From positions 129,341 through 193,340 of IMG/VR virus record IMGVR_UViG_3300032516_000003: a DNA stretch of 64,000 bases; one strand, written 5' to 3'. Every line of letters begins with the position of its first letter. Positions within the stretch are counted from its first letter, which is position 1. Under the pieces are notes generated by a model, which was not told the origin of the DNA, did no database searches, and worked only from the letters and a program-made list of their open reading frames with translations. A program made the translations under genes and the position numbers. Positions 6,014 through 56,619 of the stretch are shown here, in pieces. This DNA is from a virus.

Positions 6014-6030
6014 TGCTGGGAGGGCGTTGC

Positions 6031-43780: not shown

Positions 43781-44290
43781 TCACGGCTCAAGTTCCACCG
43801 TCCAGTAATCAGCCCACTCAGGTGGGACGTCGTGTAGTCTCAATCTAGGATTATAGGCCGGTATCCAGCTCGGTCTCACTGGTTCCCGGATCAGCCGCAT
43901 GTCGGCCTGTACCGGCGTACGGTTGGCCTTGGCCGCGTTGCAGGGCACGCAGCTCATGACGATGTTCTCCCACACGGTCTTGCCGCCCTGCGCCCGGGGG
44001 ACGACGTGATCGTAGGTGAGCTCTCCTGATGGCAGACGAGTCCCACAGTACTGACACCTGCCGTGGTCCCGGGCCAACACATTGGCCCGGCTGAACTTCA
44101 CCCGCTGCTTGCTGCGATGCACCGAGTTGTTCAGGCGCACGACCGCTGGCATCTGGATGCCCTCATGCACGGGCGTGCCGTACTCTTCGAGGACGGAGGC
44201 CCGCTCACGAGCGATGTAGCCCATGGCTCTTTGCCAGCTGACGACGTTCACCGGGAGGTAACTGCTGTCCAGTACGAGGGTCCGTTGCAT
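43781..44290 (-). CDS. HNH endonuclease (start adjusted; the upstream part of the track ORF is tRNA sequence)
   Basis: 'CQYCG...LTYDHVVPRAQGG...WENIVMSCVPCNAAK'. Confidence 0.65.
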   Translation of the reverse strand: MQRTLVLDSSYLPVNVVSWQRAMGYIARERASVLEEYGTPVHEGIQMPAVVRLNNSVHRSKQRVKFSRANVLARDHGRCQYCGTRLPSGELTYDHVVPRAQGGKTVWENIVMSCVPCNAAKANRTPVQADMRLIREPVRPSWIPAYNPRLRLHDVPPEWADYWTVELEP

Positions 44291-44358
44291 GGTCAACTCC
44301 ACCAGGTCATGGGTGTCTCCAGCTAGAATAGCTGATGTGGTCACGTGTTGGTGCGTGA

Positions 44359-44438
44359 GTGCCCAGGGCCGGACTCGAACCGGCATGCTTTCGCACAGAG
44401 GTTTGAGCTCTGCGGGTCTACCAATTTCCCCACCTGGG
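44359..44438 (-). tRNA. tRNA-Leu(CAA), type II
   Basis: Acceptor GCCCAGG/CCUGGGC, T-arm CCGGUUCGAGUCCGG, anticodon loop CUCAAAC. Confidence 0.7.
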
Positions 44439-44441
44439 CAG

Positions 44442-44520
44442 ATGGTCCGAGTGGCCGGATTTGAACCGGCGGCCCCCTGTACCCCGACCGTGCCGTCTAC
44501 CACTGACGTACACCCAGTTA
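44442..44520 (-). other. tRNA-like element (T-arm + acceptor present, no clean anticodon arm)
   Basis: T-arm GCCGG-UUCAAAU-CCGGC and CCA-like end, but the anticodon stem cannot be folded. Confidence 0.3.
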
Positions 44521-45057
44521 TCCTTGATCGTTGTGTGCTTCTGCGTGGTGGTTAGCGCAGAGCAAGATGCAGCCCCGAATCTCTTTTTTGACCCGCTCCC
44601 AGCCCCAGTACTTGAAGCCACGAAAGGCCACGTCCTTTTTTCTGGGATCTCGGTGGTGTATGTGTAGCGCAGCAAGACACTTCTTGTAGCCGCAGACCTT
44701 GCAGCTGCCTCCTAGGACGTCCACTACTCTTTGCTTGATCTCTTCGGCCCTTCGATACCTGTCTTTGTTGTGGCAGGCTACGCAGAGCTTTCGTTTGTTC
44801 CCATAGAACTGTTGTGGGTTACGCTCACCACACGGGCACTTGCGGGGCAAGGACAGGTCCTTGGGGTGTTTACCTGCAGGACCACGCCGAGTTCTGAGAT
44901 CATGCTTCTTCAACCAGTAGCGCACGGCAGTAGGACCGATCCGCAGACACGCTGACATCTGCTTAATGGTGTAATCCTGCTTGATCAACTTTTCCAGCTC
45001 TACTGAAGACACAACCTTCCCTATTTTCCTGGCCATGGGTGCAGCGTACAGTAGCAC
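44518..45057 (-). CDS. HNH homing endonuclease with N-terminal HTH
   Basis: 'CKVCGYKKCLAALHIHHRDP...CILLCANHHAEAH'. Confidence 0.7.
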   Translation of the reverse strand: MLLYAAPMARKIGKVVSSVELEKLIKQDYTIKQMSACLRIGPTAVRYWLKKHDLRTRRGPAGKHPKDLSLPRKCPCGERNPQQFYGNKRKLCVACHNKDRYRRAEEIKQRVVDVLGGSCKVCGYKKCLAALHIHHRDPRKKDVAFRGFKYWGWERVKKEIRGCILLCANHHAEAHNDQG

Positions 45058-45182
45058 AGTTTAGCTGTCAAGCGTGCGCTACCAGGCTGCGCCACACTCG
45101 GTTGGGAGCGGGGGGAGGATGTGCGCCTCCTGATCGTCACCGGCTTATGAGGCCGGCCGCCTCTGTTGGCATTCCCCGCTAG

Positions 45183-45255
45183 TGGCTGATCTCAGAGTCG
45201 AACTGAGTCATGCGCCTTATGAGAGCGCCAAGGTGACCACCACCTTACATCAGCC
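45183..45255 (-). tRNA. tRNA-Met(CAU)
   Basis: Acceptor GGCUGAU/AUCAGCC, anticodon loop CUCAUAA, T-loop UUCGACU. Confidence 0.75.
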
Positions 45256-45364
45256 GTGCTACGATTCGGTCATGCAACTGCACAGCACGATCAACTTCAA
45301 GCCTACCTGGGGTGAGCTCTTCGGCCTTGCCCTGTTCGTCTTGTGGACCTTCATCGAAGGCCGG

Positions 45365-45390
45365 TGCGCGCGGAGGGATTCGAACCCTCA
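45365..45390 (-). other. tRNA 3'-fragment (T-arm + 3' acceptor strand only)
   Basis: GAGGG-UUCGAAU-CCCUC-CGCGCGC with no 5' partner. Overlaps the next tRNA. Confidence 0.4.
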
Positions 45391-45402
45391 CTGACCAGCT
45401 AG

Positions 45403-45487
45403 TGCCGACGGGGCGACTCGAACGCCCAATGACCTTTCGATCACCTCGCTTTAAGGGAGGCCCGTTAGCCAGTTCCGGCACGTCGGC
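45403..45487 (-). tRNA. tRNA-Leu(UAA), type II
   Basis: Acceptor GCCGACG/CGUCGGC, loop CUUAAAG, long variable arm. Confidence 0.65.
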
Positions 45488-45902
45488 CTACATTCTTTCC
45501 TCTGTACGTAGGTGTGAATGCGTGACAGTTGGGACAGAGTAGCCTCAGGTTCTTTACTGCCTGGTTGTGCTTGTCCCCATCGCAATGATGAATCTCCAGT
45601 GGTATCGCCTCTCCTGACCACTTTGTTCTGCGGCACCCTTCACACTGGTGTCCGCGTTCTTCTATGAGCCTGCGCTTGATCGCTGCCTTGTGCTTTAGTT
45701 GTGACAGTTCTTTCCGGCACAGCTTCTGTCCATGACGCTTCGCCACTTCTGGATCAACTGGGATGTGGCCGATCCACCCCTTTATGGTCCTCCAGTGGAC
45801 TCCAGTGTGGTGGGCTATTGATCGGAAACCGTGTCCCAACTTCCGTAGCTGAATGGCTTCCTTGTACTGCTCCTGCTTCCCCTTATAGGGTCCTCTAAGC
45901 AT
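45465..45902 (-). CDS. HNH homing endonuclease
   Basis: 'CEGCRRTKWSGEAIPLEIHHCDGDKHN...LRLLCPNCHA'. Confidence 0.7.
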   Translation of the reverse strand: MLRGPYKGKQEQYKEAIQLRKLGHGFRSIAHHTGVHWRTIKGWIGHIPVDPEVAKRHGQKLCRKELSQLKHKAAIKRRLIEERGHQCEGCRRTKWSGEAIPLEIHHCDGDKHNQAVKNLRLLCPNCHAFTPTYRGKNVGRRAGTG

Positions 45903-45962
45903 TCAACCAGGCTAGCAATTCACAGCAGTAGCGTCAAGCCACACTAGCTATTACGATTTGGT

Positions 45963-46045
45963 GCCAGCGAGAGGAATCGAACCTCCATGAGCTTTCGCCC
46001 GCTCGGTCCTAAGCCGAGTGCGTCTGCCGTTTCGCCACGCTGGCG
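45963..46045 (-). tRNA. tRNA-Leu(UAG), type II
   Basis: Acceptor GCCAGCG/CGCUGGC, loop CUUAGGA. Confidence 0.75.
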
Positions 46046-46050
46046 TTGGC

Positions 46051-46124
46051 CTGCCCGGAGGGATTCGAACCCCCACTTGCTCGGTTCGTAGCCGAGAGTC
46101 TTCTCCAATTGGACCACGGGCAGA
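46051..46124 (-). tRNA. tRNA-Arg(ACG)
   Basis: Acceptor CUGCCCG/CGGGCAG, loop CUACGAA. Confidence 0.75.
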
Positions 46125-46128
46125 TGGT

Positions 46129-46202
46129 GTCGCTGGCCAGATTCGAACTGGCAGCCGCTCGGGTCGGAGCCGAGTGCTCGATCCAATCGAGCTGCAGCGA
46201 CG
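46129..46202 (-). tRNA. tRNA-Arg(CCG)
   Basis: Acceptor GUCGCUG/CAGCGAC, loop CUCCGAC. Confidence 0.75.
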
Positions 46203-46209
46203 GTGTGGT

Positions 46210-46282
46210 GTCCTAGCCCAGACTCGAACTGGGAACGGAGGTTTAGGAGACCTCCATGATCTCCGCTTTCACCACTAGGACT
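46210..46282 (-). tRNA. tRNA-Arg(CCU)
   Basis: Acceptor GUCCUAG/CUAGGAC, loop CUCCUAA. Confidence 0.75.
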
Positions 46283-46631
46283 TGTAGCGTGCGTCAAATG
46301 CCCGTTTAGCGGCTTTGCAGCCGGCACACCGGCATCCGTAGTTCGAGTAGCGTGATTTGGTGCCGTGTGATGGCTCGCGCTGGGCGCCCGATTCTTTCTT
46401 GTGACACTCCGAGCAGAGGACTTCGCACTTTGCTAGTTCCTGACGCCGCCGCGCTTCACTCCAGGACCAGATCCTATGTGTGACCTTTGTTGAGCGGTCC
46501 ACGTGGTGGACTTCCAGCTGTTCAACTGAGCCGCAGCGAGCGCATTTCTGCCCTACAAACCAGTTCTCGCGTCTTGCTTTGATCCATTCTCGATTGTATG
46601 CACGCTGCAGTTCTTGGTCCTTGTATGGCAA
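46275..46631 (-). CDS. HNH homing endonuclease (start uncertain, probably TTG after internal GGAGG)
   Basis: 'CARCGSVEQLEVHHVDRS...CEVLCSECHKKE'. The N-terminal part of the track ORF overlaps a tRNA-like element. Confidence 0.6.
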   Translation of the reverse strand: MPYKDQELQRAYNREWIKARRENWFVGQKCARCGSVEQLEVHHVDRSTKVTHRIWSWSEARRRQELAKCEVLCSECHKKESGAQREPSHGTKSRYSNYGCRCAGCKAAKRAFDARYKS

Positions 46632-46696
46632 GGTACCTCCATCCAATTGGGCGACAGGGCCGAGGGGTGACGATATTCGGTGAGGCGATGTGCTAG

Positions 46697-46765
46697 GTGC
46701 CCTGCCGAGGAGTTGAACCCCGCACTCTGCGCTTAGAAGGCGCTGATGGCGTCCGCACCGCAGGG
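46697..46765 (-). tRNA. tRNA-Arg(UCU)-like, short/irregular D-arm (possible pseudo-tRNA)
   Basis: Acceptor GCCCUGC/GCAGGGC, loop CUUCUAA, only 69 nt. Confidence 0.4.
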
Positions 46766-47074
46766 CTCTTGCAGCTTGCGCTTCTCGTTCGGAGGGTCCT
46801 TGTCTTTGGCACCGTTGGCCTTGTAGGGCTTGCACAGTAGGCAGCCAGCTCTCCGATTCTTGGGACGCTTGCGCTTGTGGTGCACGATCACCTCTCAGTC
46901 ACAGCAGCGTTGCGATTGATGTGCCTGTTCCACCTGATCGCTGCGGCAGCGTAGGCGGACTGCTTGTACTGGCTGTACATCCGCATCGGCCATCTGACTG
47001 GTAGACGGCCCAGAGGACCGTGCAGCCGCGTCAGCACCTTCTTCGCCTGCCTCAGCTTCATGGTGTCCTCCTGG

Positions 47075-47145
47075 AGCTACCGACAGGATTCGAACCTGTG
47101 TGGCTCGGGTTGCAGCCGAGTGCCTCGCCTCTTGGCTACGGTAGC
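47075..47145 (-). tRNA. tRNA-Cys(GCA)
   Basis: Acceptor GCUACCG/CGGUAGC, loop CUGCAAC, discriminator U. Confidence 0.8.
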
Positions 47146-47149
47146 ATGG

Positions 47150-47320
47150 CGGGGGACCTGGGGATCGAACCCAGCCCGGCTCCGAGAGGGCATCATCTTG
47201 CACCGCCCTGAGCCTGGACGGTTGCGGGTCTTGCGACCCAGCGGGCCTGGCAGGAATCGAACTCAGCAGCCAACCGGGTTTGGAGTCCAGTGCGCTTACC
47301 CAGAGCGTCTCCCCTTCTTC
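47150..47320 (-). other. ~170-nt tRNA-like element(s) with aberrant arms
   Basis: 5' GGGGAGAC..., D-arm, anticodon-like loop CUCCAAA (CCA = Trp), two UUCGAU T-loops, 3' GUCCCCCGCCA. Cannot be folded into a canonical cloverleaf. Confidence 0.3.
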
Positions 47321-47736
47321 CATTTTCCTAGTCTTGCGTGCAACCGGCGATGGCAGTTGGCGCAGAGAACTCTGCACTTCTTGATCTCCTTAATCACCGT
47401 CCCCCAACTGAGACCTCGCTGGTACATGAGTTGGTTGATGCCTGCTTCCTTTTGACTTGGGTCTCGGTGGTGAAACTCCAGCACCACTGGATCAGCTTCG
47501 CCACAACTACATGAGTGCTTGAAAAGGTACTGTGTCAGCTGCTGTGCGATCTCCTCCCTGCGCTTCTGGTTGCTGACCTTAGCCCGAGCAAGGTACTTGG
47601 TCCTGTCCTTCTTGTAGTGCTCTCGGTTGTAGGCAGCTTTGCAGGTGATGCAGAGACTTTGGTAGCCGCGTCTAGAGTGGCGGTAGAACTGCTTCACTGG
47701 AAGTGGACCACAGTTCTTGCAGGTGGCTGTCCTCAT
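47296..47736 (-). CDS. HNH homing endonuclease (start adjusted to MRTATCKNCG)
   Basis: 'CSCGEADPVVLEFHHRDPSQK...CRVLCANCHRRLHA'. Confidence 0.65.
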   Translation of the reverse strand: MRTATCKNCGPLPVKQFYRHSRRGYQSLCITCKAAYNREHYKKDRTKYLARAKVSNQKRREEIAQQLTQYLFKHSCSCGEADPVVLEFHHRDPSQKEAGINQLMYQRGLSWGTVIKEIKKCRVLCANCHRRLHARLGKWKKGRRSG

Positions 47737-47762
47737 GTCTCTGAAGACTAGCACACATTTGG

Positions 47763-47834
47763 AGCCGGAGAGTGGACTTGAACCACCACCCTCGTCCTTA
47801 CCAAGGACGCGCACCACCTTTGTGCTACTCCGGC
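47763..47834 (-). tRNA. tRNA-Thr(GGU)
   Basis: Acceptor GCCGGAG/CUCCGGC, loop UUGGUAA. Confidence 0.75.
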
Positions 47835-47842
47835 ATGATCAG

Positions 47843-47915
47843 TGGATGCGAAGGGATTCGAACCCTCTGCCTCAGGCTTGCAAAGCCCGCGCTCTCCCAA
47901 GTGAGCTACGCACCC
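47843..47915 (-). tRNA. tRNA-Ala(UGC)
   Basis: Acceptor GGGUGCG with G3:U70, loop UUUGCAA. Confidence 0.8.
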
Positions 47916-47919
47916 ATGG

Positions 47920-47991
47920 TCCGAGGTGAGGGAGTTGAACCCCCGGCATCCGGTTTGTAGGACCGGCGTTCCTCCGTTGAACTAACCTCGG
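47920..47991 (-). tRNA. tRNA-Val(UAC)
   Basis: Acceptor CCGAGGU/ACCUCGG, loop CCUACAA. Confidence 0.7.
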
Positions 47992-47992
47992 G

Positions 47993-48064
47993 TGCTCCCG
48001 GCGGGTATCGATCCCGCTCCTGCGGCTTGAAAGGCCACTGACCTAGCCAGTAGTCTACGGGAGC
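47993..48064 (-). tRNA. tRNA-Glu(UUC)
   Basis: Acceptor GCUCCCG/CGGGAGC, loop CUUUCAA, T-loop AUCGAUA. Confidence 0.65.
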
Positions 48065-48468
48065 GAGTGGTGGACCCTGTGGCAGTTCGCACAGAGCACC
48101 TCACACTTGCCCACTTCCTCCCAGATGCGATCTATGTTGAAGCATCTAGTGATCATAGTGGCGATGTTGTCCGTCTTGGTGCCGCCGACGTGATGTAGAT
48201 CTAGCGCAGCTGCGTGCTCATTGTAGCCACATGACTGGCAACCAATGCTCATCTTGTAGCTATCGATGACGTCCTTTGCCTCGGCGCGGACTCTCTTAGT
48301 TCTTGCCCGCACTTGTTTGTCTCGTCCTCGATTGTAGTAGCTGTCAGAGTCAATCTCTCGGTGGCACGGCTTACACCAGCTCTGACGTCTGCCCTTGGAC
48401 TTGTAGCGCCAGGCGAAGTCCTCTACATCTCTTTCATGACCGCATTTGGGGCATACCTTGGTCTTCAT
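48055..48468 (-). CDS. HNH homing endonuclease
   Basis: 'CQSCGYNEHAAALDLHHVGG...CEVLCANCHRVHH'. Confidence 0.7.
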   Translation of the reverse strand: MKTKVCPKCGHERDVEDFAWRYKSKGRRQSWCKPCHREIDSDSYYNRGRDKQVRARTKRVRAEAKDVIDSYKMSIGCQSCGYNEHAAALDLHHVGGTKTDNIATMITRCFNIDRIWEEVGKCEVLCANCHRVHHSLP

Positions 48469-48513
48469 GCAGTCATGATAGTGTGTATCGAACTGCTCCG
48501 CAAGAGTGAAAGG

Positions 48514-48585
48514 TGACCCCAGGGGGAGTTGAACCCCTCGTTTACGGGTTGAGAACCCGTTTGCCTACCGTTAGCAGATGGGGCC
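48514..48585 (-). tRNA. tRNA-Glu(CUC)
   Basis: Acceptor GGCCCCA/UGGGGUC, loop UUCUCAA. Confidence 0.65.
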
Positions 48586-48591
48586 ATTGAT

Positions 48592-48789
48592 CTACTTCTT
48601 GATGGTGGAGAAGCAGCGGGGGCAGCAGATGACGGTATCGACTTCCCTCTTGTCGTTCGCCTTGTAGAGGATGTTGTTGTTGCGCGGGACACTCCACTGG
48701 AAGTCCCGGCCGCAGAGGCAGACGGCACTGCCCTCCCCCTCGTTCTCTTGGATCACTACTCTGATGTTGGTGCCCATTGTCTCCCTCAT
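48592..48789 (-). CDS. Small zinc-ribbon protein (65 aa)
   Basis: CLCG...CCPRC. Confidence 0.35.
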   Translation of the reverse strand: MRETMGTNIRVVIQENEGEGSAVCLCGRDFQWSVPRNNNILYKANDKREVDTVICCPRCFSTIKK

Positions 48790-48793
48790 GTTG

Positions 48794-48866
48794 AGCCGCC
48801 CCCGAGACTCGAACTCGGTACCTTCCGCTTACAAGGCGGATGCTCTGCCAGGTGAGCTATGGCGGC
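48794..48866 (-). tRNA. tRNA-Thr(UGU)
   Basis: Acceptor GCCGCCA/GGGCGGC, loop CUUGUAA. Confidence 0.7.
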
Positions 48867-48901
48867 AACTACTATCACCTTGATCGATCTGCGTCAAGTG
48901 G

Positions 48902-48974
48902 AGCTGGAGGTGGGAGTCGAACCCACTGCCTCCGGTTTACGAAACCGGCGCTCTGCCTGTTGAGCTTCACCAGC
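48902..48974 (-). tRNA. tRNA-Thr(CGU)
   Basis: Acceptor GCUGGUG/CUCCAGC (one mismatch), loop UUCGUAA. Confidence 0.65.
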
Positions 48975-49050
48975 GTTGGTAGGGACGGCGGCCCGTTAGT
49001 CCGCTCCTCGTTCCTAAGGGATTGCGTGCACGATTACACCACGTCCCCAG

Positions 49051-49123
49051 CTGGGTGGGATGGAGTCGAACCACCATCTCCTCTGATGGACTAGAGGCGC
49101 TTTTCCGATTGCGCTACCACCCA
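49051..49123 (-). tRNA. tRNA, anticodon undetermined (irregular 8-nt anticodon loop AGUCCAUC)
   Basis: Good acceptor UGGGUGG/CCACCCA and T-arm. Anticodon stem CCUCU/AGAGG leaves an 8-nt loop. Confidence 0.45.
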
Positions 49124-49127
49124 ATGG

Positions 49128-49212
49128 TGCCATCACCCGGATTCGAACCGGGACGCCCTTTCGAGCACAGCGTTCTGAGCGCTGCGGGTCTACCTGATTT
49201 CCCCATGATGGC
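49128..49212 (-). tRNA. tRNA-Leu(CAG), type II
   Basis: Acceptor GCCAUCA/UGAUGGC, loop CUCAGAA. Confidence 0.75.
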
Positions 49213-49217
49213 GTTGG

Positions 49218-49305
49218 TGCGATCGGCCGGAGTCGAACCGGCACCCAGCTTTCGCCGGACCAGGCCCTCAACCTGGCGGGTCTACCAAGATTTCCCCACG
49301 ATCGC
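49218..49305 (-). tRNA. tRNA-Leu(GAG), type II
   Basis: Acceptor GCGAUCG/CGAUCGC, loop UUGAGGG. Confidence 0.75.
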
Positions 49306-49309
49306 TTGG

Positions 49310-49381
49310 TCGGGGTGACTGGAATTGAACCAGCGACCTCACGGTCCCGAACCGTGCGCGCTACCCCTGCGCTACACCCCG
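49310..49381 (-). tRNA. tRNA-Pro(CGG)
   Basis: Acceptor CGGGGUG/CACCCCG (C1-G72), loop UUCGGGA. Confidence 0.75.
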
Positions 49382-49761
49382 ATTGCTGTCAGGCTCCGGT
49401 ACGTGCCCCCATCGTTGTGGCTCATGCGTAGGTAACCCTGCAGCCAGTTGATCAGGTCACTTGCTTCCCACGCCACCAGTAGCCAGAGGGGAGACCAAAG
49501 CGCTCCCAGAAGGGCCCAAGCTAGCAGTAGAACAATGGACTTGATCAGTGGGGCTAGAGCCGATGTTCTTCTCTGCACGGCTGTGAGGGATTGACTGTAG
49601 CTTACGCTACCCCACACGAAGCCACTTGAAGCGACGTGAGGCCAAGGGCGGAAGGCCTTGATCCCCACACCGTAGGCTCGTGCAACTAAGACGTGCGTCA
49701 GCTCGTGAAGCACGAGAGTCAGAGGAGCACCAACTACGCCTAGGACTATCCAGTACCACAT
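49372..49761 (-). CDS. Small polytopic membrane protein with HExxH ('HELTH') motif; metalloprotease-like
   Basis: Three or four TM helices. HExxH within the first helix (site-2-protease/M50-like arrangement). Confidence 0.4.
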   Translation of the reverse strand: MWYWIVLGVVGAPLTLVLHELTHVLVARAYGVGIKAFRPWPHVASSGFVWGSVSYSQSLTAVQRRTSALAPLIKSIVLLLAWALLGALWSPLWLLVAWEASDLINWLQGYLRMSHNDGGTYRSLTAIGV

Positions 49762-49776
49762 AGGACGAGTCTACCA

Positions 49777-49850
49777 GAGCGGGTGACGGGATTTGAACCC
49801 GCAATCTCCAGCTTGGAAGGCTGGCACCGGTACCAGTCCGGCAGCACCCG
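49777..49850 (-). tRNA. tRNA-Gly(UCC)
   Basis: Acceptor GCGGGUG/CACCCGC, loop CUUCCAA, discriminator U. Confidence 0.75.
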
Positions 49851-49893
49851 CGTGACAGAAAGACAGAATGGGAAGAAGGGGTCGGGTTGTCGT

Positions 49894-50304
49894 TTACTGC
49901 ACGATCTTCTTGATCTCTTCCGCCAATGACTCAGTACGGACTGTCAAGTTCCGTATCAGCCGTGGCAGAATCTGTGCTGCTTCGATTCGCTGTCGTAGAG
50001 GAGCCGAGCTCACGGGGAGGACGCAGTTTTCCTCACCGTCCACATCCTCGATCACCACCAGCTGGTAGCCTCCCTTCTCCTTCCGGTAGGCCAGGCTGTA
50101 GGCGATCTCGACTGGTGGGCCTTCCGATTCTGGGTCGTTGGCCTCTTCTGTAGCCCCCTTCATCGTGATGCGGGCCGTGGCACACGAGAACTCACCTAGA
50201 GCCTCCTCGGTATGCCGGAAGTGGGCGTTCAGCTTCTCCACCAGACACTTCAGCTCCTCTTCCTTCTCTACCAGACGCTGCAGCTCAAGTCGTTGCTCGT
50301 TCAT
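49894..50304 (-). CDS. Coiled-coil hypothetical protein (136 aa; start adjusted to MNEQRL)
   Basis: The track ORF's N-terminal extension runs toward tRNA sequence. Confidence 0.4.
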   Translation of the reverse strand: MNEQRLELQRLVEKEEELKCLVEKLNAHFRHTEEALGEFSCATARITMKGATEEANDPESEGPPVEIAYSLAYRKEKGGYQLVVIEDVDGEENCVLPVSSAPLRQRIEAAQILPRLIRNLTVRTESLAEEIKKIVQ

Positions 50305-50346
50305 GGTCAGTACCCCTGTCAATGAGTACGGACCCCTTCTTCCCGG

Positions 50347-50429
50347 CGGAAGATCCGAGAGTCGAACTCGGCTAGCCTTGCGGCCGTACTCGCCTTCCAA
50401 GCGAGCTGTGCACCTCGCACGCATCTTCC
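50347..50429 (-). tRNA. tRNA-Ser(GGA), type II
   Basis: Acceptor GGAAGAU/AUCUUCC, loop UUGGAAG, discriminator G. Confidence 0.7.
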
Positions 50430-50433
50430 ATGG

Positions 50434-50505
50434 AGCGGCCAGTGAGAGTTGAACTCACGATCTCCACCTTGGCAAGGTGGCGCCTTACCACTAGGCAATG
50501 GCCGC
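50434..50505 (-). tRNA. tRNA-Gly(GCC)
   Basis: Acceptor GCGGCCA/UGGCCGC, loop UUGCCAA. Confidence 0.75.
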
Positions 50506-50557
50506 AAGAAATGGGGGTTGCTCAGCAGCTGATCTTCACGGTTCTTGTACGCCATCG

Positions 50558-50646
50558 CGGAGCGGAGAGGAATCGAACCTCCAGACCCTCATGAGGCCTC
50601 CGGTTTAGCAAACCGGTACAGGGCACCAATGCCTGACGGCCGCTCC
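50558..50646 (-). tRNA. tRNA-Ser(GCU), type II
   Basis: Acceptor GGAGCGG/CCGCUCC, loop UUGCUAA, discriminator G. Confidence 0.75.
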
Positions 50647-50694
50647 ATTGTTTCCCGGCTTTGTTTGGGAGAGCCGGGAAGAACTCCGCTAGCC

Positions 50695-50765
50695 TTGAGA
50701 CGGTGGGTCTTGAAGCCACACTCTCCAGCACCCTAGCTGGTGCTCTACCATTGAGCTACGTCCCT
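50695..50765 (-). tRNA. tRNA-like with 6-nt (or 8-nt) anticodon loop UAGGGU; possible pseudo/suppressor tRNA
   Basis: Canonical D-arm GCUCAAUGGUAGAGC. Acceptor GGGACG/CGUCUC (G3:U70). Anticodon stem CCAGC/GCUGG encloses only 6 nt. Confidence 0.35.
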
Positions 50766-51030
50766 CGGTACTGCGCCAGTTGATCCTTAGTCGTCTTAAC
50801 TCGATGTCTGATTGACGTGGTTGTTTGGCTGCCTGTTGATCTGGATCTCACTACTCCCAGAACGCCTGGGCTACTTCGCGATCACCAGCCACCTGCAGCA
50901 TCACAGTCGTCGCTCGTGATCAGCCTCTATGGGGCCAGGTCACGATCTCACCTCCATGGGCATTGAGCCGGAGTAGGTTGGACATTCTACCACGAACCAG
51001 CCCCCACTAATCGAGGCAGGGGTCTGGGCA

Positions 51031-51101
51031 GCGCCCTATGAGGGACTCGAACCCTCTTCACTCGCTAGACAGGCGAGCTGCGCTCCCAGCGCATCATAGG
51101 G
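51031..51101 (-). tRNA. tRNA-Asp(GUC)
   Basis: Acceptor GCCCUAU/AUAGGGC, loop CUGUCUA, discriminator G. Confidence 0.75.
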
Positions 51102-51310
51102 CAGACCCGGAGACCTTGCGCCCCGCCCTAGGCAGGGACCAGTACTGCAGATCAGGTGAGGGGCCCTATCCACTGATCTTCTGGCGTCTAGTGGCCTTCC
51201 GGTTGGCCGTGAAATAGAACGGTCGCTCCAGTGGCGCCGTCAACGAACTGGAGACTGGGTGGCTAACATCGTAGGACGGTGACGTACTAGTTAGCGACCT
51301 GACCGTTCAG

Positions 51311-51393
51311 CGGAGAGTAGCGGAATCGAACTGCCTGGCTTTCACCAGCCCACGCCTTCGAAGCGTGTTAGGGACCATTCCCTGGTACTCTCC
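51311..51393 (-). tRNA. tRNA-Ser(CGA), type II
   Basis: Acceptor GGAGAGU/ACUCUCC, loop UUCGAAG, discriminator G. Confidence 0.65.
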
Positions 51394-51454
51394 ATTACGG
51401 GAAGCGTGCCGCCGCTGCACCACGTTCGCCCACGCAGAGTGTTGCCCTGCGGCT

Positions 51455-51480
51455 AGCGCCCGGCGGGATTCGAACCCGCG
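51455..51480 (-). other. tRNA 3'-fragment (T-arm + 3' acceptor strand)
   Basis: GCGGG-UUCGAAU-CCCGC-CGGGCGC without a 5' partner. Overlaps tRNA-Ala(GGC). Confidence 0.4.
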
Positions 51481-51492
51481 TCTCTTCCCTAG

Positions 51493-51565
51493 TGGATCCG
51501 ATCGGAGTCGAACCGACAGCCTCCTGAATGCCATTCAGGCGCTCTCCCAGCTGAGCTACGGACCC
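51493..51565 (-). tRNA. tRNA-Ala(GGC)
   Basis: Acceptor GGGUCCG (G3:U70), loop AUGGCAU. Confidence 0.75.
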
Positions 51566-51569
51566 GTCG

Positions 51570-51640
51570 TGGATCGACGGAGAGTCGAACTCCGATTTGC
51601 GGCTTGCGGAACCGCCGTCCTCCCATTGGACGATCGACCC
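51570..51640 (-). tRNA. tRNA-Ala(CGC)
   Basis: Acceptor GGGUCGA (G3:U70), loop UCCGCAA. Confidence 0.65.
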
Positions 51641-51689
51641 GTGTTATGCTCTCCCAAATGTCGGCATCTTGCCGATGAGGAGAAGGACA

Positions 51690-51953
51690 ATGATCAAGTA
51701 CCTACTATGTCTGGTTGCGATGCTCTTCGTGGCGTGCAGCAAGCCAGTGGCCCCGGCTGCTCCGACTTCTGCTCCGGCCAAAGTGGAGACCCCTGCTGCG
51801 CCAGCTCCTGCCTCCGTGCCGGTACTGAAGGTCATGCCGCCAGCCAAAGCTCCTGCTGCGGCCAAGGTGACAGTCAAGGCCGGACCGATCATCACAGTGA
51901 TTCCTGCCAAGGCCACCACCAAGCTTCCGCCCAATAACCTCAAGATCAAGTAA
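51690..51953 (+). CDS. Pro/Ala-rich lipoprotein (signal peptide + lipobox FVAC); o-spanin-like or superinfection-exclusion candidate
   Basis: 'MIKYLLCLVAMLFVAC|SKPVAP...'. GAGGAGAAGGA RBS. Plus-strand gene inside the minus-strand tRNA array. Confidence 0.5.
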   Translation: MIKYLLCLVAMLFVACSKPVAPAAPTSAPAKVETPAAPAPASVPVLKVMPPAKAPAAAKVTVKAGPIITVIPAKATTKLPPNNLKIK

Positions 51954-51962
51954 TGCTGCGTA

Positions 51963-52033
51963 GGTGATCGGTGGAAGTCGAATCCACACCTACAGGGCCA
52001 CAACCTGCCGTGCTACCGCTACACCACGACCAC
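51963..52033 (-). tRNA. tRNA-His(GUG)
   Basis: Acceptor GUGGUCG/CGAUCAC, loop UUGUGGC, discriminator C. Confidence 0.75.
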
Positions 52034-52035
52034 AG

Positions 52036-52110
52036 TGCGACCCGCTGGATTCGAACCAGCCACCCTTCGCTTATCAAGCGAATGCTCTAACCAAGATGAG
52101 CTAGGGTCGC
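52036..52110 (-). tRNA. tRNA-Ile(GAU)
   Basis: Acceptor GCGACCC/GGGUCGC, loop UUGAUAA. Confidence 0.8.
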
Positions 52111-52115
52111 GTTAG

Positions 52116-52188
52116 AGTGGGAGGCGAGATTTGAACTCACATCGGGCTGCTTAACAGGCAGCTGCCTGAACCATTAGGCTACTCCCAC
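52116..52188 (-). tRNA. tRNA-Asn(GUU)
   Basis: Acceptor GUGGGAG/CUCCCAC, loop CUGUUAA. Confidence 0.75.
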
Positions 52189-52192
52189 ATGG

Positions 52193-52264
52193 TCGAGGTG
52201 GCCGGGATCGAACCGGCGACCCCCTGGTCCCAGGCCAGGTGCGCTACCCCTGCGCTACACCTCG
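52193..52264 (-). tRNA. tRNA-Pro(UGG)
   Basis: Acceptor CGAGGUG/CACCUCG, loop CCUGGGA. Confidence 0.75.
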
Positions 52265-52265
52265 G

Positions 52266-52337
52266 TTCGGCCGGCACGATTCGAACGTGCGACTACTCGG
52301 GTCAAAGCCGAGTGTCCTACCACTGGACGACGGCCGA
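52266..52337 (-). tRNA. tRNA-Gln(UUG)
   Basis: Acceptor UCGGCCG/CGGCCGA (U1-A72), loop CUUUGAC. Confidence 0.75.
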
Positions 52338-52399
52338 TCACAATTGTGAAGTACACCGCTTCTGTGAGTCGCGACATCAGGAAACGATGTACTTCGTGG

Positions 52400-52470
52400 T
52401 GCTCCAGTGCGGAGTTGAACCGCAACCTTCTGGGCTTCAACCAGACGCTCTACCTCTGAGCTACCGGAGC
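52400..52470 (-). tRNA. tRNA-Phe(GAA)
   Basis: Acceptor GCUCCGG/CUGGAGC, loop UUGAAGC. Confidence 0.75.
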
Positions 52471-52475
52471 CTCAG

Positions 52476-52548
52476 TCCACCCCGGGGGAGTCGAACCCAC
52501 CGTCAACCGCTTATAGGGCAGCCGTTAGAACCGCTTAACTAGGGGTGG
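52476..52548 (-). tRNA. tRNA-Ile(UAU)-like (AUA decoder) — anticodon assignment tentative
   Basis: Acceptor CCACCCC/GGGGUGG, loop CCUAUAA. Confidence 0.5.
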
Positions 52549-52617
52549 TTGTGCCCGGCAAGACGCCGGGCTTCGTGACCACGTATCGCTATTCGTTTGT
52601 CACAGAGCGTTGCGCAG

Positions 52618-52691
52618 TTCGGGGTGAGAGACTTGAACTCCCAATCTTCCGGGTCAGAGCCGGACGCTCTAGCCAGTTGAGCCAACCCCGA
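52618..52691 (-). tRNA. tRNA-Gln(CUG)
   Basis: Acceptor UCGGGGU/ACCCCGA, loop CUCUGAC. Confidence 0.75.
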
Positions 52692-52707
52692 TCATCTAGT
52701 ACGCGCC

Positions 52708-52780
52708 GTGGGTCCACAGAGATTCGAACTCTGTTCTCCCGGGTAAGAGCCGGGTGCTTCTCCTGCTAAGCTTTGGACCC
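52708..52780 (-). tRNA. tRNA-Lys(CUU)
   Basis: Acceptor GGGUCCA/UGGACCC, loop CUCUUAC. Confidence 0.7.
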
Positions 52781-53089
52781 TCTACGTCTCTGACGCCAGT
52801 GTAGTTTCGCGTGACAGTTGAGGCACATCACTTCGCACTTCTTGATCTCTTCTTCTAGCCGCGCAAGAGACCATCCCATCCTAGACGCACTCCCCAACTC
52901 AAACGACTTGTTGTTGGGATCTGTGTGGTGAAAGACAAGGGCGGCCTTGTGCCTCTCGCCACATGTGCAGAACGTCTTTCTCTCCTCTATGAACTCCTTG
53001 ATCTGCCTTCGTTGCTCTAGCAGCCGCTGCGCTGCCTTGTCCCGGTTCTTCTGGTAGTACCTAGCGTTCACTTCTCTGCTGTTGCTCAT
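52766..53089 (-). CDS. HNH homing endonuclease (107 aa)
   Basis: 'CTCGERHKAALVFHHTDPNNK...CEVMCLNCHAKLHW'. Confidence 0.7.
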   Translation of the reverse strand: MSNSREVNARYYQKNRDKAAQRLLEQRRQIKEFIEERKTFCTCGERHKAALVFHHTDPNNKSFELGSASRMGWSLARLEEEIKKCEVMCLNCHAKLHWRQRRRGSKA

Positions 53090-53174
53090 ACACCGTCAGT
53101 AGCATCTCTTACTCACCTCTGTCAAGTAAGAGTCAGGTGCTCTGCCGGTCGAGCTAGGCGCGTATGATCTTCAG

Positions 53175-53247
53175 TGCCTCCGGCAGGAGTCGAACCTGCA
53201 ACTTTCGGGGTAAAAGCCCGCTACGCTGCCAGTTGCGTCACGGAGGC
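53175..53247 (-). tRNA. tRNA-Lys(UUU)
   Basis: Acceptor GCCUCCG/CGGAGGC, loop CUUUUAC. Confidence 0.7.
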
Positions 53248-53292
53248 TCATGTACAAGTCATAAGCCCCGCGTTTGAGTCGTGCCTTCATGG

Positions 53293-53377
53293 TGCACGTG
53301 GCTGGAGTCGAACCAACCTGGGCGCTATGTCCAACCGGGTTACGGCCGGTCCCCGAGCCCTACGGGCCTACACGTGC
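53293..53377 (-). tRNA. tRNA-Tyr(GUA), type II
   Basis: Acceptor GCACGUG/CACGUGC, anticodon stem ACCGG/CCGGU, loop CCGUAAC. Confidence 0.6.
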
Positions 53378-53399
53378 GTGTCAGATACGAAAACGTTGT

Positions 53400-53819
53400 T
53401 CACACCGCATGTCTTCGTCTATGATCTTCGAGATACTCGACCGCTTTCCTGAGCAATTCTGGATCGTCTCGAAGGAGTCCTATCCCGCTGTTGCAACTCC
53501 TACACAACGCCCCACGTTTTTCTCCGCTGTGGTGATCGTGGTCCAGGACCAATTCTCCTCCAGCCCCACAGATGGCACAGAGCCCGCGTTGCTCTTCTAT
53601 TCTCTTTTCCCTCGCTTCTCTCCACTCCCTTTCGGCTGTGTGGTTTGGACTCCAGTGCCCCTTGTTCGGGTTCTGATTTCGGCACACCCACCGCTTCCTA
53701 GTCTTGCGGAAGCGGAGAGGGGTATTCGGGCCACATTCGGCACAAGTCCCTACGCCCTTGTCTTGATCGATACTGCTGAGTCGATGTTTCCACTTCGACC
53801 CCATGTGCACCCCCTGCAA
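53400..53819 (-). CDS. Endonuclease VII-family nuclease (third copy)
   Basis: 'LVLDHDHHSGEKRGALCRSCNSGIGLL'. Confidence 0.7.
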   Translation of the reverse strand: MQGVHMGSKWKHRLSSIDQDKGVGTCAECGPNTPLRFRKTRKRWVCRNQNPNKGHWSPNHTAEREWREAREKRIEEQRGLCAICGAGGELVLDHDHHSGEKRGALCRSCNSGIGLLRDDPELLRKAVEYLEDHRRRHAV

Positions 53820-54175
53820 AACAAAAGCCGCCAGAAGTTACCTTCGGGCGGCTCCAGAACCTGTTCTCTGTTTCGGTCTAGGAGCCGCCTGGTGGCCTTT
53901 CGTGCCCGAGGGTATTGGCGTACAGGGTGCCCTCGGGCTTGGTTGGGCGCGCGAAGACGCACACGTCCAACCACGACCGAATGGCCGGGCTGGATGATGT
54001 CTGCGTCATGGCGGCTTTGAACATTGAAGATGACCCTCTTCTCCACCTATGAGCCTGCTCCAGACACTTGTCAAGCAGAAATCGACATCCCGTCGAGAAA
54101 GGCCTCGGAACCGCGCTCTGGACCGCCCGTGGGGGGGGTTCGGACGGAGGTGCGGTTCCGAGGCCAGACTCGATC

Positions 54176-54601
54176 CTACCGCTTCTCAATCTGCTTGGCT
54201 AGCCTCCGCTTCTCAATCTGCTTGATGGTCTTCGAGACCCACGTGCTGGTATTGATCCAGTAGATGCGGTCAGCGGTGACCACGACGGCGCCACCACCGT
54301 AGGCGTCCAGCCGCGGCTTGCTGCAGTCATTGGCCCACTCGAAGCTGAAGATGGCCTTGGGTCGGAACTGCTTGATGAACTCCTGGAGGAAGAGAACGAG
54401 GTTGTCGAGATTCACACTCTCCCCGTCGTAGATCCAGAGTGACTTGTCTGCCTCGTCGAAGGAGTACTCCGCATCGAAGAGCGGGAAGTCGTTCTCGTCC
54501 ATGGTTGCTTCGCGGCGCTTGATCTCAGCGCGCAACCACTCTTCCTCTGCCTTGTGGAGCTTGGGGATCTCGAATGAGCAGTGAGTGTAGTAGTCAGCCA
54601 T
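54176..54601 (-). CDS. Hypothetical acidic protein (141 aa) with duplicated C-terminal heptad 'KQIEKRR'
   Basis: 20-bp direct DNA repeat (ccgcttctcaatctgcttg x2) at the 3' end. Confidence 0.4.
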   Translation of the reverse strand: MADYYTHCSFEIPKLHKAEEEWLRAEIKRREATMDENDFPLFDAEYSFDEADKSLWIYDGESVNLDNLVLFLQEFIKQFRPKAIFSFEWANDCSKPRLDAYGGGAVVVTADRIYWINTSTWVSKTIKQIEKRRLAKQIEKR

Positions 54602-54797
54602 GATCTATCTCCTTCTTGCGGCCACGCACGATGGGTCCACGCCTCAGCTCGATGAGATTCCGCGCCAGCTCGTAGTCGCCAGCTCGCTCGGCCTGTAGTG
54701 CCTTGGGTGGCAGGATGTAGCACTCGTGATCGACGGGCCTACCAGTCTGGAGATCGTGGCCGAAGTTGCAGAAGCTGGTGCAGAAGACCTCAGACAC
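54594..54797 (-). CDS. Small hypothetical protein (67 aa)
   Basis: Coupled ORF. Confidence 0.3.
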   Translation of the reverse strand: MSEVFCTSFCNFGHDLQTGRPVDHECYILPPKALQAERAGDYELARNLIELRRGPIVRGRKKEIDHG

Positions 54798-56053: not shown

Positions 56054-56173
56054 GGTAGCCTCCTGAGGGCTCTAGTTGATGATCTTATACCACCGACTTG
56101 AGCATCTTTATGAGGAGAATCCACAGTAACTGAGAATATTGCGCATGCGTGAAAACCCTGTTATAGTGGCCAA

Positions 56174-56557: not shown

Positions 56558-56619
56558 GGAAACGGGGCAGAATATCACCCCAGAGGCGGGAGCTCGCGGA
56601 CCTGGCCAAAGCCCACGAA

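Follow-up and report, generated by a model that had tools for sequence, protein, structure and literature searches.

Here, we describe a cluster of transfer RNA (tRNA) genes interleaved with putative homing-type endonuclease genes. It lies on a 64-kb stretch of an uncultivated virus record (IMG/VR IMGVR_UViG_3300032516_000003, positions 129,341 to 193,340), called the window in the following; window-wide counts refer to these 64,000 nt. At default settings, ARAGORN predicts 38 tRNA genes, all on the minus strand between 44359 and 53377 and nowhere else in the window. Rfam reports 33 tRNAs in the same interval at the gathering threshold, mostly with 50-69 bits. Two of these (44446-44517 and 50695-50765) are missed by default ARAGORN; relaxed settings add both of them, together with Ser(CGA) at 51310-51393. 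Taken together, these calls amount to 41 tRNA or tRNA-like genes within 9.0 kb, approximately 4.5 per kb, and the array is thus a phage tRNA gene cluster as defined in PMC6409571 (at least 15 tRNA genes, at least 2 per kb, in a tailed-phage genome).

An earlier note, made by reading the sequence, had proposed a near-complete set of about 40 tRNAs at 44350-53400. This is in good agreement with the counts above, since the automated finders do not recover far fewer genes. The isotypes obtained by hand-folding recur almost item for item: five Leu, three Arg plus an irregular 71-nt UCU gene, three each of Ala, Thr and Ser, two each of Gly, Glu, Pro, Gln, Lys and Ile, and one each of Cys, Met, Val, Asp, His, Asn and Phe. 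The Tyr gene of the note corresponds to the 88-nt gene at 53290-53377. Of the 20 amino acids, 19 are served by the approximately 38 canonical tRNAs, and all 20 if an odd gene with a CCA loop is counted as Trp. The genes are as follows (labels such as L015 denote related sequences, which are compared below).

44359-44439 (-): tRNA-Leu(CAA); ARAGORN, Rfam 54.2 bits
44443-44517 (-): tRNA-Pro-like, 8-nt anticodon loop UCGGGGUA, weak anticodon stem, encoded CCA; Rfam 37.5 bits, relaxed ARAGORN '(gggg)'
45182-45255 (-): tRNA-Met(CAU); ARAGORN
45402-45487 (-): tRNA-Leu(UAA); ARAGORN, Rfam 43.2 bits
45959-46044 (-): tRNA-Leu(UAG); ARAGORN, Rfam 53.6 bits
46047-46123 (-): tRNA-Arg(ACG); ARAGORN, Rfam 54.2 bits
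46125-46201 (-): tRNA-Arg(CCG); ARAGORN, Rfam 53.8 bits
46206-46281 (-): tRNA-Arg(CCU); ARAGORN, Rfam 52.3 bits
46696-46766 (-): tRNA-Arg(UCU), irregular, 71 nt, reduced D arm; ARAGORN, no Rfam report even at E<=1
47072-47145 (-): tRNA-Cys(GCA); ARAGORN, Rfam 60.9 bits
47760-47834 (-): tRNA-Thr(GGU); ARAGORN, Rfam 63.8 bits
47842-47915 (-): tRNA-Ala(UGC); ARAGORN, Rfam 63.7 bits
47917-47991 (-): tRNA-Val(UAC), C33, loop CCUACAA; ARAGORN, Rfam 59.8 bits
47991-48064 (-): tRNA-Glu(UUC); ARAGORN, Rfam 56.3 bits
48512-48585 (-): tRNA-Glu(CUC); ARAGORN, Rfam 48.8 bits
48793-48866 (-): tRNA-Thr(UGU); ARAGORN, 100% identity in L015 and L016
48899-48974 (-): tRNA-Thr(CGU); ARAGORN, Rfam 62.8 bits
49050-49123 (-): tRNA-like, aberrant anticodon arm (6-nt loop, or 8-nt AGUCCAUC); ARAGORN '???(cc)', Rfam 39.8 bits
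49125-49212 (-): tRNA-Leu(CAG); ARAGORN, Rfam 52.4 bits
49215-49305 (-): tRNA-Leu(GAG); ARAGORN, Rfam 47 bits
49307-49381 (-): tRNA-Pro(CGG); ARAGORN, Rfam 66 bits
49777-49851 (-): tRNA-Gly(UCC); ARAGORN, Rfam 50.4 bits
50345-50429 (-): tRNA-Ser(GGA); ARAGORN, 98-99% identity in L009, L010, L015 and L016
50431-50505 (-): tRNA-Gly(GCC); ARAGORN, Rfam 68.8 bits
50557-50646 (-): tRNA-Ser(GCU); ARAGORN
50695-50765 (-): tRNA-like, Pro(AGG)-like, 6- or 8-nt anticodon loop, A1-A72 mismatch; Rfam 46 bits, relaxed ARAGORN '(aggg)'
51031-51102 (-): tRNA-Asp(GUC), U37; ARAGORN, Rfam 37.9 bits
51310-51393 (-): tRNA-Ser(CGA); relaxed ARAGORN, Rfam class-II (tRNA-Sec model) 31.7 bits
51492-51565 (-): tRNA-Ala(GGC); ARAGORN, Rfam 62.8 bits
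51569-51640 (-): tRNA-Ala(CGC), C33 (also in L008 and L016); ARAGORN, Rfam 53.9 bits
51963-52033 (-): tRNA-His(GUG); ARAGORN, Rfam 58.7 bits
52035-52110 (-): tRNA-Ile(GAU); ARAGORN, Rfam 63.7 bits
52115-52188 (-): tRNA-Asn(GUU); ARAGORN, Rfam 62.7 bits
52190-52264 (-): tRNA-Pro(UGG), C33, loop CCUGGGA; ARAGORN, Rfam 62.4 bits
52264-52337 (-): tRNA-Gln(UUG); ARAGORN, Rfam 66.1 bits
52397-52470 (-): tRNA-Phe(GAA); ARAGORN, Rfam 67.8 bits
52475-52548 (-): tRNA-Ile(UAU), C33, loop CCUAUAA; ARAGORN, Rfam 42.8 bits
52617-52691 (-): tRNA-Gln(CUG); ARAGORN, Rfam 63.3 bits
52708-52780 (-): tRNA-Lys(CUU); ARAGORN, Rfam 60.9 bits
53174-53247 (-): tRNA-Lys(UUU); ARAGORN, Rfam 63.4 bits
53290-53377 (-): class-II tRNA, preferred reading Tyr(GUA), C33; ARAGORN Val(AAC), Rfam class-II match 27.7 bits

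The array also contains nuclease genes, of which the earlier note had counted at least seven. We find eight, namely seven HNH open reading frames (ORFs) and one endonuclease VII ORF, all on the strand of the tRNAs. Six HNH genes are located wholly within 44350-53400; HNH-1 and the endonuclease VII gene (EndoVII) abut the two ends.

43781-44287 (-): HNH-1, McrA/IscB-type; Pfam HNH_5 and HNH above cut-offs, phrog_16726 9e-33, PDB 4h9d and IscB HNH domains ~1e-10
44518-45057 (-): HNH-2; phrog_2255 2.7e-23, no Pfam HNH match, stop codon abuts the Pro-like gene
45465-45902 (-): HNH-3; phrog_10822 1e-21, Pfam HNH_3 and HNH sub-threshold
46275-46646 (-): HNH-4; phrog_4234 4.5e-37, homology from residue 70 of the long ORF
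47296-47736 (-): HNH-5; phrog_2255 8.7e-32, homology from residue 26 of the long ORF
48055-48468 (-): HNH-6; phrog_2255 2.6e-30
52766-53089 (-): HNH-7; phrog_2255 1.7e-19, phrog_3106 8e-19
53400-53819 (-): EndoVII, upstream end of the array; Pfam Endonuclease_7 69 bits (cut-off 23.6), phrog_2914 2.5e-23, PDB Hpy99I 1.3e-9

All eight genes match PHROG nuclease families (E-values 1e-19 to 1e-37), at least four different ones, and EndoVII matches the endonuclease VII families at 1e-22 to 1e-23. The curated cut-offs of Pfam are passed by HNH-1 and EndoVII only, with HNH-3 below threshold. Domain searches, which had been suggested as a check on the HNH genes, thus give a divided answer: PHROG supports every one of them, whereas Pfam alone would partly contradict the assignment. 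In an alignment of six HNH sequences the CxxC, HH and C..H columns are invariant, and an Asn precedes the last His in most copies. A profile of six HNH genes matches McrA (PDB 6ghc) with an E-value of 0.0055; the distant structural matches comprise McrA, the endonuclease domain of LtrA, Hpy99I, and the HNH domains of IscB and Cas9. No GIY-YIG match was obtained for any of the eight genes with Pfam or among the PHROG matches listed. At the gathering score Rfam finds only tRNA and transfer-messenger RNA (tmRNA) in the window, and hence no group I or II intron. The nuclease genes are intergenic among the tRNA genes and reside in neither an intron nor an intein.

The earlier note had read some endonuclease N-termini as translated tRNA sequence, and this reading did not hold. 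The longest ORFs do extend upstream into tRNA sequence (43781-44503, 46275-46835 and 47296-47817), but HNH-family homology starts downstream of the tRNAs, which identifies the N-terminal overlap as an artefact of taking the longest ORF. Real overlap occurs at the 3' ends of the ORFs, whose stop codons lie inside the next tRNA. The protein ORFs of the array sit exactly at tRNA-tRNA junctions, and their ends reach or enter the 5' end of the following tRNA by 0-25 nt: 23 nt for HNH-3 (Leu(UAA)), 15 nt for HNH-7 (Lys(CUU)), 10 nt for both HNH-6 (Glu(UUC)) and ORF129 (Pro(CGG)), 7 nt for HNH-4 (Arg(CCU)) and 0 nt for HNH-2. The stop codon of HNH-4 falls in the acceptor stem of Arg(CCU). Apart from the nucleases, five ORFs are found among the tRNAs.

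46888-47061 (-): ORF57, small; from the ORF list, no PHROG match
48592-48789 (-): ORF65, small, Cys-rich; from the ORF list, 98%-identical homologue in the syntenic contig L015
49372-49761 (-): ORF129, zincin-like membrane protein with HExxH motif; Pfam DUF3267 sub-threshold, homologues of 38-80% identity
49894-50307 (-): ORF137, variable cargo; in L009 and L010, absent from L008, L015 and L016
51690-51953 (+): small lipoprotein-like ORF inside the array, in the gap between His and Ala(CGC)

The N-terminus of the last of these resembles a signal peptide and ends in Cys, its body is Pro/Ala-rich, and the ORF is conserved in L008. A search for ORF65 homologues gave the single 98% match, and an exact look-up of ORF129 gave none. 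Outside the called genes, a scan for T-loop motifs combined with local alignment revealed tRNA fragments.

45355-45400 (-): tRNA remnant, T arm and 3' acceptor strand; T-loop scan, aligns to tRNA positions 46-71
47140-47178 (-): tRNA remnant, T arm, 3' acceptor strand and CCA; T-loop scan, local alignment
47236-47296 (-): truncated tRNA, Trp(CCA)-like, loop CUCCAAA followed by the T-arm region; T-loop scan, local alignment
51445-51482 (-): tRNA remnant, T arm and 3' acceptor strand; T-loop scan, local alignment
53120-53162 (-): 5' tRNA fragment (acceptor strand, D arm, loop CUCUUAC); sequence reading, aligns to tRNA 5' halves

Truncated fragments adjoin HNH-3, HNH-5 and HNH-7. The missing 5' third of fragment 47236-47296 coincides with the end of HNH-5; its best alignment is to positions 24-69 of the window Arg(CCG), and the tRNA-Trp of L001 scores one point lower. 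Fragment 53120-53162 ends abruptly 30 nt upstream of HNH-7; on the far side of that gene, Lys(CUU) is intact. The fragments look like scars of insertion into, or replacement of, tRNA genes, and the Trp-like scar may explain why the window holds no canonical Trp gene.

Active turnover of mobile elements had been suggested for this locus, with an alignment of the endonuclease flanks against relatives as a check. Syntenic contigs were reached via homologues of ORF129. Of two patterns run against JGI metagenomes the first gave no match; the second, the conserved Ser(GGA) pattern, gave one further contig of 2.6 kb. The samples with relatives are SRR27069944, SRR15313068, ERR4334727, ERR4334728, ERZ27257233 and JGI Ga0315283. 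The relatives keep the tRNA order and differ in ORFs, HNH genes and single tRNAs. L015 and L016 share the order Pro-like, Ser, Gly, Ser, Gly, Pro, Leu, Leu, Thr, Thr with 78-100% identity per segment. Both lack ORF129, ORF137 and precisely the 78 nt that hold the odd gene 49050-49123; ORF137 is also missing from L008 and present in L009 and L010. Among the few endonuclease junctions compared, HNH genes come and go at two. At the start of L016, the C-terminal part of an HNH gene (FHHRDPSKK...CANCH) extends into Ala(CGC), and the contig does not reach the remainder of the junction; at the same junction the window and L008 carry the conserved lipoprotein-like ORF on the opposite strand and no HNH gene. 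Where the window has HNH-4, a single nucleotide (1 nt) separates Arg(UCU) from Arg(CCU) in L011, in which a different gene of the HNH_3 family overlaps the 5' end of Val(UAC).

Identity to the relatives jumps from approximately 68% to 100% between adjacent tRNAs. For Gly(GCC), identity is 100% with L015 and L016 and approximately 70% with L008 and L009; for Gly(UCC) it is the other way round, and Ser(GCU) is 93% identical to L015 and 67% to L016. We read these swings as gene-by-gene replacement. The presence or absence of ORFs, HNH genes and single tRNAs, together with the tRNA fragments that flank HNH genes, argues that the turnover is real; at the level of the compared sequences, it is demonstrated for ORFs, an HNH gene and single tRNAs.

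Homologues of ORF129 (43-50% identity) also occur on contigs without nearby tRNAs (L005, L006, L007, L012, L013 and L014), and ORF129 is therefore mobile cargo rather than array-specific. Compared with L005, L006 has an extra inserted HNH_3 gene.

Most tRNAs of the array keep the canonical anticodon loop of 7 nt with U33 and a purine at position 37, but not all do. The near-universal U33 is replaced by C33 in Val(UAC), Ala(CGC), Pro(UGG) and Ile(UAU), which are otherwise good tRNAs (43-62 Rfam bits), and in the Tyr reading; three genes have anticodon loops of 6 or 8 nt. In the relatives, C33 is found in 1-3 tRNAs of each contig (L008, L010, L011, L015, L016 and L001) but in none of L009, and not always in the same gene. 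Ala(GGC) has U33 in the window and C33 in L008, L010 and L016, Thr(CGU) has U33 in the window and C33 in L015 and L016, and Ser(GCU) has C33 in L008. Ser(CGA), for which relaxed settings were needed in the window, is called by default ARAGORN in L008 and L010.

The gene at 53290-53377 was called Val(AAC) by ARAGORN, and we reject this call: it needs two G-U pairs, leaves no nucleotide 26 and places C at position 37. If the register is shifted by two nt, the anticodon stem has five Watson-Crick pairs and the loop becomes CCGUAAC, which gives GUA as the anticodon, C at position 33 and A at position 37. Bacterial Tyr, but not Val, typically has a long variable arm and A73. Since both features fit Tyr and C33 recurs in the array, we assign this class-II gene to Tyr(GUA) with moderate confidence. 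The Pro-like gene at 44443-44517 has Pro(UGG) and Pro(CGG) as its closest paralogues. In gene 50695-50765 the loop reads UAGGGU in the window, CAAGGGU in L015, CUAAGGU in L009 and L010, and AAUGGGU in L008, whose copy is not called by ARAGORN even at relaxed settings. The odd gene at 49050-49123 is a candidate Trp(CCA) or Gly tRNA. Searches with this Trp-like gene and with the Tyr gene gave no match.

Two further cloverleaves are hidden in apparent spacers. The 72 nt at 48977-49048 (-) form a cloverleaf with encoded CCA and a non-canonical T loop that is conserved in L015 (1253-1325) and L016 (1990-2062). Its anticodon loop is CCUUAGG (UUA) in the window and L015 and CCCUAGG (CUA) in L016, both of them anticodons that would pair with stop codons, and the window copy has a degraded anticodon stem. 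Rfam gives no tRNA match and ARAGORN no call in the window; at relaxed settings the L016 copy is called 'Pyl(cta)'. In the alignment of the three sequences, 93.5% of the cells are paired, with 4 compensatory pairs, compared with 32-51% when the partners are slid. The folding z-scores of the odd tRNAs as single sequences are unremarkable (-0.3 to -1.9), and support for this cloverleaf therefore comes from covariation. The second one, at 45107-45179 (-), directly follows tRNA-Met, and its best local match is to a tRNA-Met. It is Met(CAU)-like with a perfect anticodon arm, lacks the usual GG and UUC elements in its D and T loops, and is called by neither ARAGORN nor Rfam. Its minimum-energy fold is the cloverleaf, which is not better than shuffles (z -0.82).

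Stop-codon recoding in the phage was considered and rejected, as the standard code gives long ORFs, which end in TAG more often than in any other stop (28 TAG, 21 TGA and 5 TAA in 54 window ORFs). TAG as the main stop is unusual at approximately 60% G+C.

Odd-loop tRNAs could resist host anticodon nucleases, which cut at or beside position 33/34; alternatively, they could serve as decoys or suppress frameshifts or nonsense codons. Phage tRNAs have been proposed to diverge in the anticodon loop and so escape host nucleases (PMC10264068), and the odd loops fit this proposal. As the HNH stop codons lie within downstream tRNAs, processing by RNase P would remove them, which would link the expression of the endonucleases with both the maturation of the tRNAs and the phage tmRNA. 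Taken jointly, adaptive loops and stop-codon removal by RNase P make up a speculative reading that we hold to be rather improbable, and the odd loops could equally reflect decay.

Decoding capacity was evaluated with simple wobble rules for the 15,432 codons of 54 strand-consistent window ORFs and 38 confident anticodons including Tyr. This comparison of anticodons with codon usage, which the earlier note had also suggested, shows that the confident set reads approximately 92% of the codons. Val(GAC), Pro(GGG), Ser(UGA) and a canonical Trp anticodon are missing from the window. The Pro gap is filled if the two Pro-like odd genes work, and the Trp gap if 49050-49123 is Trp. The set is thus near-complete and not self-sufficient within the window; we infer that it would lend the phage independence from host tRNA pools.

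The surrounding genes mark the element as a large, myovirus-like tailed phage of approximately 60% G+C. A large terminase, a tail sheath and a baseplate protein are encoded in the window (PHROG matches). The tail sheath-like protein has 1123 residues and only weak matches (27-32% identity) in Vibrio, Salmonella and Bacillus G phages. Base composition is even across the window. No integrase was found among the subset of ORFs scanned, a search that was not exhaustive for the window. The longest contig bearing window genes is a 193,704-bp ENA metagenome contig (ERZ27248201, k141_3956766), of which the part compared is 99.99% identical to window positions 46889-63975; Logan contigs from a second run are 100% identical to that part of the window. 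The earlier note had spoken of a jumbo phage with a large tRNA set. The large phage and its near-complete set stand, but the label jumbo is not established, since 193.7 kb is just below the usual 200-kb line, with a contig that may be incomplete. Near and distant DNA searches of the 50,697 phage records gave single-tRNA matches only and no syntenic relative, and scans of IMG/VR with ORF129, ORF137, a vault-like protein described below and two tRNA patterns gave no matches.

A tmRNA gene is located at 41850-42191 (-), on the strand of the tRNA array and 2.2 kb downstream of it (Rfam RF00023, 96.8 bits, gathering score 47; no ARAGORN call). Between the tmRNA and HNH-1, and abutting the latter, lies a further ORF.

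42879-43769 (-): TnpB/Cas12f-like ORF (IS605 OrfB); Pfam Cas12f1-like_TNB 1.9e-20, OrfB_IS605 7e-10

No TnpA turned up in the ORFs scanned. Scans for promoters and terminators gave counts at or below shuffle expectation.

On the other side of the array, 57611-60193 (-) encodes an 860-residue protein with major-vault-protein (MVP) domains (MVP_shoulder 1.2e-26, Vault_3 and Vault), which is unusual for a phage gene. Its homologues number thousands in metagenomes. Those of about 50% identity stem from metagenome-assembled genomes (MAGs) of Myxococcota (Kofleriaceae, Nannocystaceae and others), and one homologue of 79% identity is on a short Logan contig. The homologues of this gene hint at a Myxococcota bacterium as host. 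The array flanks also carry nucleotide-metabolism genes, an NT5C-type 5' nucleotidase and a dCMP deaminase (window 56889-57527 (-); L003 5425-5973).

Further candidate mobile elements are found outside the array. The large terminase (6013-8955 (+), 980 aa) contains a LAGLIDADG domain between its ATPase and nuclease parts and is thus an intein host, and a 1339-aa ORF at 11897-15916 (+) has two Hint/intein regions, one with a LAGLIDADG domain. Four free-standing nuclease genes (3435-3959 (+), 5591-6010 (+), 21653-22684 (+) and 62732-63343 (-)) comprise two endonuclease VII-like ORFs, one directly upstream of the terminase, and two HNH genes. The whole genome segment is rich in predicted selfish elements.

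Putting these observations together, we consider it very probable that the locus is a tRNA gene cluster of a large uncultivated tailed phage that has been colonised by free-standing homing-type endonuclease genes. The tRNAs, all on one strand, would presumably be transcribed as a unit and released by host RNase P and RNase Z. Along with the tmRNA, they would sustain phage translation when host tRNAs are unsuitable, depleted or cleaved by defence nucleases. By analogy with the endonuclease SegB of phage T4, the array nucleases would act by homing: most likely they spread by cutting endonuclease-free alleles of co-infecting relatives and would be copied in along with neighbouring tRNAs. Such copying would yield a gene-by-gene mosaic and truncated tRNA fragments. 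The mosaic identities of single tRNAs and the truncated tRNAs at HNH borders are compatible with homing, though only indirectly.

Several observations weigh against this interpretation. Five of the seven HNH genes (HNH-2, 4, 5, 6 and 7) have no Pfam HNH match. The relatives are short contigs of 1.8-3.9 kb, so few HNH junctions are comparable, and L011 with the clearest endonuclease-free junction is a distant relative whose tRNAs are 52-70% identical. The codons GUC/GUU (52% of Val), CCC/CCU, UCA and UGG have no confident tRNA in the window. The HNH paralogues are only 28-39% identical, and a repeat search found conserved tRNA arms only, with no long recent repeats or segmental amplification. 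Thus, nothing points to a very recent spread within the genome. A recent intragenomic duplication of the HNH genes was considered and rejected given the low identity, by which the paralogues appear old and diverse.

Other explanations have to be weighed against colonisation of a functional cluster. One may ask whether the tRNAs only supply codons used more by the phage than by its presumably G+C-richer host, with no role for host shut-off or the evasion of defences. Myxococcota are a G+C-rich phylum, the phage has approximately 60% G+C and the closest homologues of its MVP-like gene are from Myxococcota MAGs; moreover, some tRNAs of the array, among them Leu(UAA), Ile(UAU), Lys(UUU) and Arg(UCU), serve rare codons that end in A or U. 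Yet the set is near-complete rather than selective: it reads the commonest G/C-ending codons (such as CUG, GAG, AAG and GCC), for which tRNAs would be on hand in a G+C-rich host anyway, and leaves GUC, the commonest Val codon, without a tRNA. Such pure codon compensation also does not predict the recurrent C33 or the variable positions 32/33/37/38 among orthologues, and we regard it as possible but unlikely. A slightly less probable alternative, and a doubtful one, is that the HNH genes are domesticated rather than selfish and serve tRNA amplification in the manner of SegB, exclusion of competitors or DNA packaging. SegB amplifies a tRNA-Tyr segment against the Septu defence (PMC13096335), and the density of 8 nucleases in approximately 10 kb of array is several-fold above that of about 5 in 54 kb elsewhere in the window. 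However, the array shows no tandem or segmental duplication, its nucleases come from at least four families and vary in presence between relatives, and the inteins, endonuclease VII-like genes and TnpB elsewhere in the genome fit a general permissiveness to selfish elements.

The array might also be a recombination graveyard in which many tRNAs are decaying pseudogenes and a minority is functional. At least five truncated fragments, the three genes with 6- or 8-nt loops, the weak anticodon stems at 44443-44517 and 48977-49048 and the uncalled L008 orthologue of 50695-50765 would fit such decay, which nevertheless appears quite improbable for the array as a whole: 33 genes pass the Rfam gathering score, mostly with 50-69 bits, several orthologues are 94-100% conserved, and stems are kept by compensatory changes even in the non-canonical cloverleaf. 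Finally, bacterial tRNA arrays exist (PMC6409571), and the MVP-like gene is about 50% identical to homologues in bacterial MAGs, so that a chromosomal or plasmid array beside a prophage has to be considered. Phage structural and packaging genes share contig and gene organisation with the array, the composition is uniform, small phage-type ORFs, the nucleotidase and the dCMP deaminase flank the array on both sides, and the non-exhaustive scan of an ORF subset gave no integrase. A non-viral origin is thus hardly credible.

The locus comes from a phage lineage not sampled before and, for a natural array, is unusually dense, packing about 40 tRNAs and eight nuclease genes into 10 kb. Large phage tRNA arrays are now read as counter-measures to host shut-off and tRNA-cleaving defences, and the recurrent loss of U33 leads to the hypothesis that phage tRNAs are selected to escape anticodon nucleases. 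The locus leaves the picture of what such arrays are unchanged.

Several known systems invite comparison. The tRNA cluster of phage T4 harbours SegB, to which it owes its preferential inheritance (PMC2330249). Across phages, homologues of SegB show a statistical association with tRNAs, which they can move or amplify (PMC2330249; PMC13096335). Both loci have a free-standing endonuclease gene between the tRNA genes of a myovirus, and since the T4 enzyme cuts the tRNA region of relatives and carries neighbouring tRNAs along, the array may work like segB by analogy. In contrast, SegB is a GIY-YIG enzyme, and the array nucleases are not members of its family because they belong to the HNH and endonuclease VII types. 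T4 has 8 tRNAs and one segB compared with approximately 40 tRNAs and eight nuclease genes here, where no signature of amplification is seen.

Closer in scale are the catalogued phage tRNA clusters of 15-37 genes, in some of which HNH genes are core genes (PMC6409571), and mycobacteriophage cluster C1 with approximately 33 tRNAs (PMC10264068). The HNH genes in those clusters have been proposed to diversify tRNA repertoires (PMC6409571; PMC10264068). The array resembles these clusters in its dozens of tRNAs, the G+C-rich genome and the HNH genes within. It differs in size (38-41 genes compared with a maximum of 37 in the isolate survey of 2019) and in having more nuclease genes per kb, and there is no sequence relationship. 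As far as text searches of PMC6409571 and PMC10264068 show, neither mentions a recurrent change from U33 to C33.

The uncultivated phage Virus Rctr197k (KX853510), a 197-kb genome from a bioreactor enrichment, provides the only near-identity DNA match to the array, a single tRNA-Ala of 88%. It is of similar size and has G+C-rich tRNAs, 30 of which are annotated in a one-strand array in the 20-kb stretch examined; its Val(GAC) has C33. Unlike the array described here, that of Rctr197k is almost free of ORFs and has no HNH gene between tRNAs, the only annotated HNH gene of the stretch examined being outside the array. It also includes a canonical Trp tRNA and Gly(CCC), and no synteny or protein-level relationship was found.

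The Escherichia coli siphovirus T5 carries the HNH endonucleases F-TflI, II and IV interspersed among approximately 24 tRNA genes. T5 thus likewise has several HNH genes among its tRNAs and differs in being a siphovirus with unrelated sequences. A tmRNA is encoded by the mycobacteriophages of cluster C1, as it is by the phage described here. The arrangement is already known from other big phages, and the array fits that kind on every testable feature. It stands out by its density and lineage; the C33 pattern and the hidden cloverleaves are its distinctive parts and worth follow-up.

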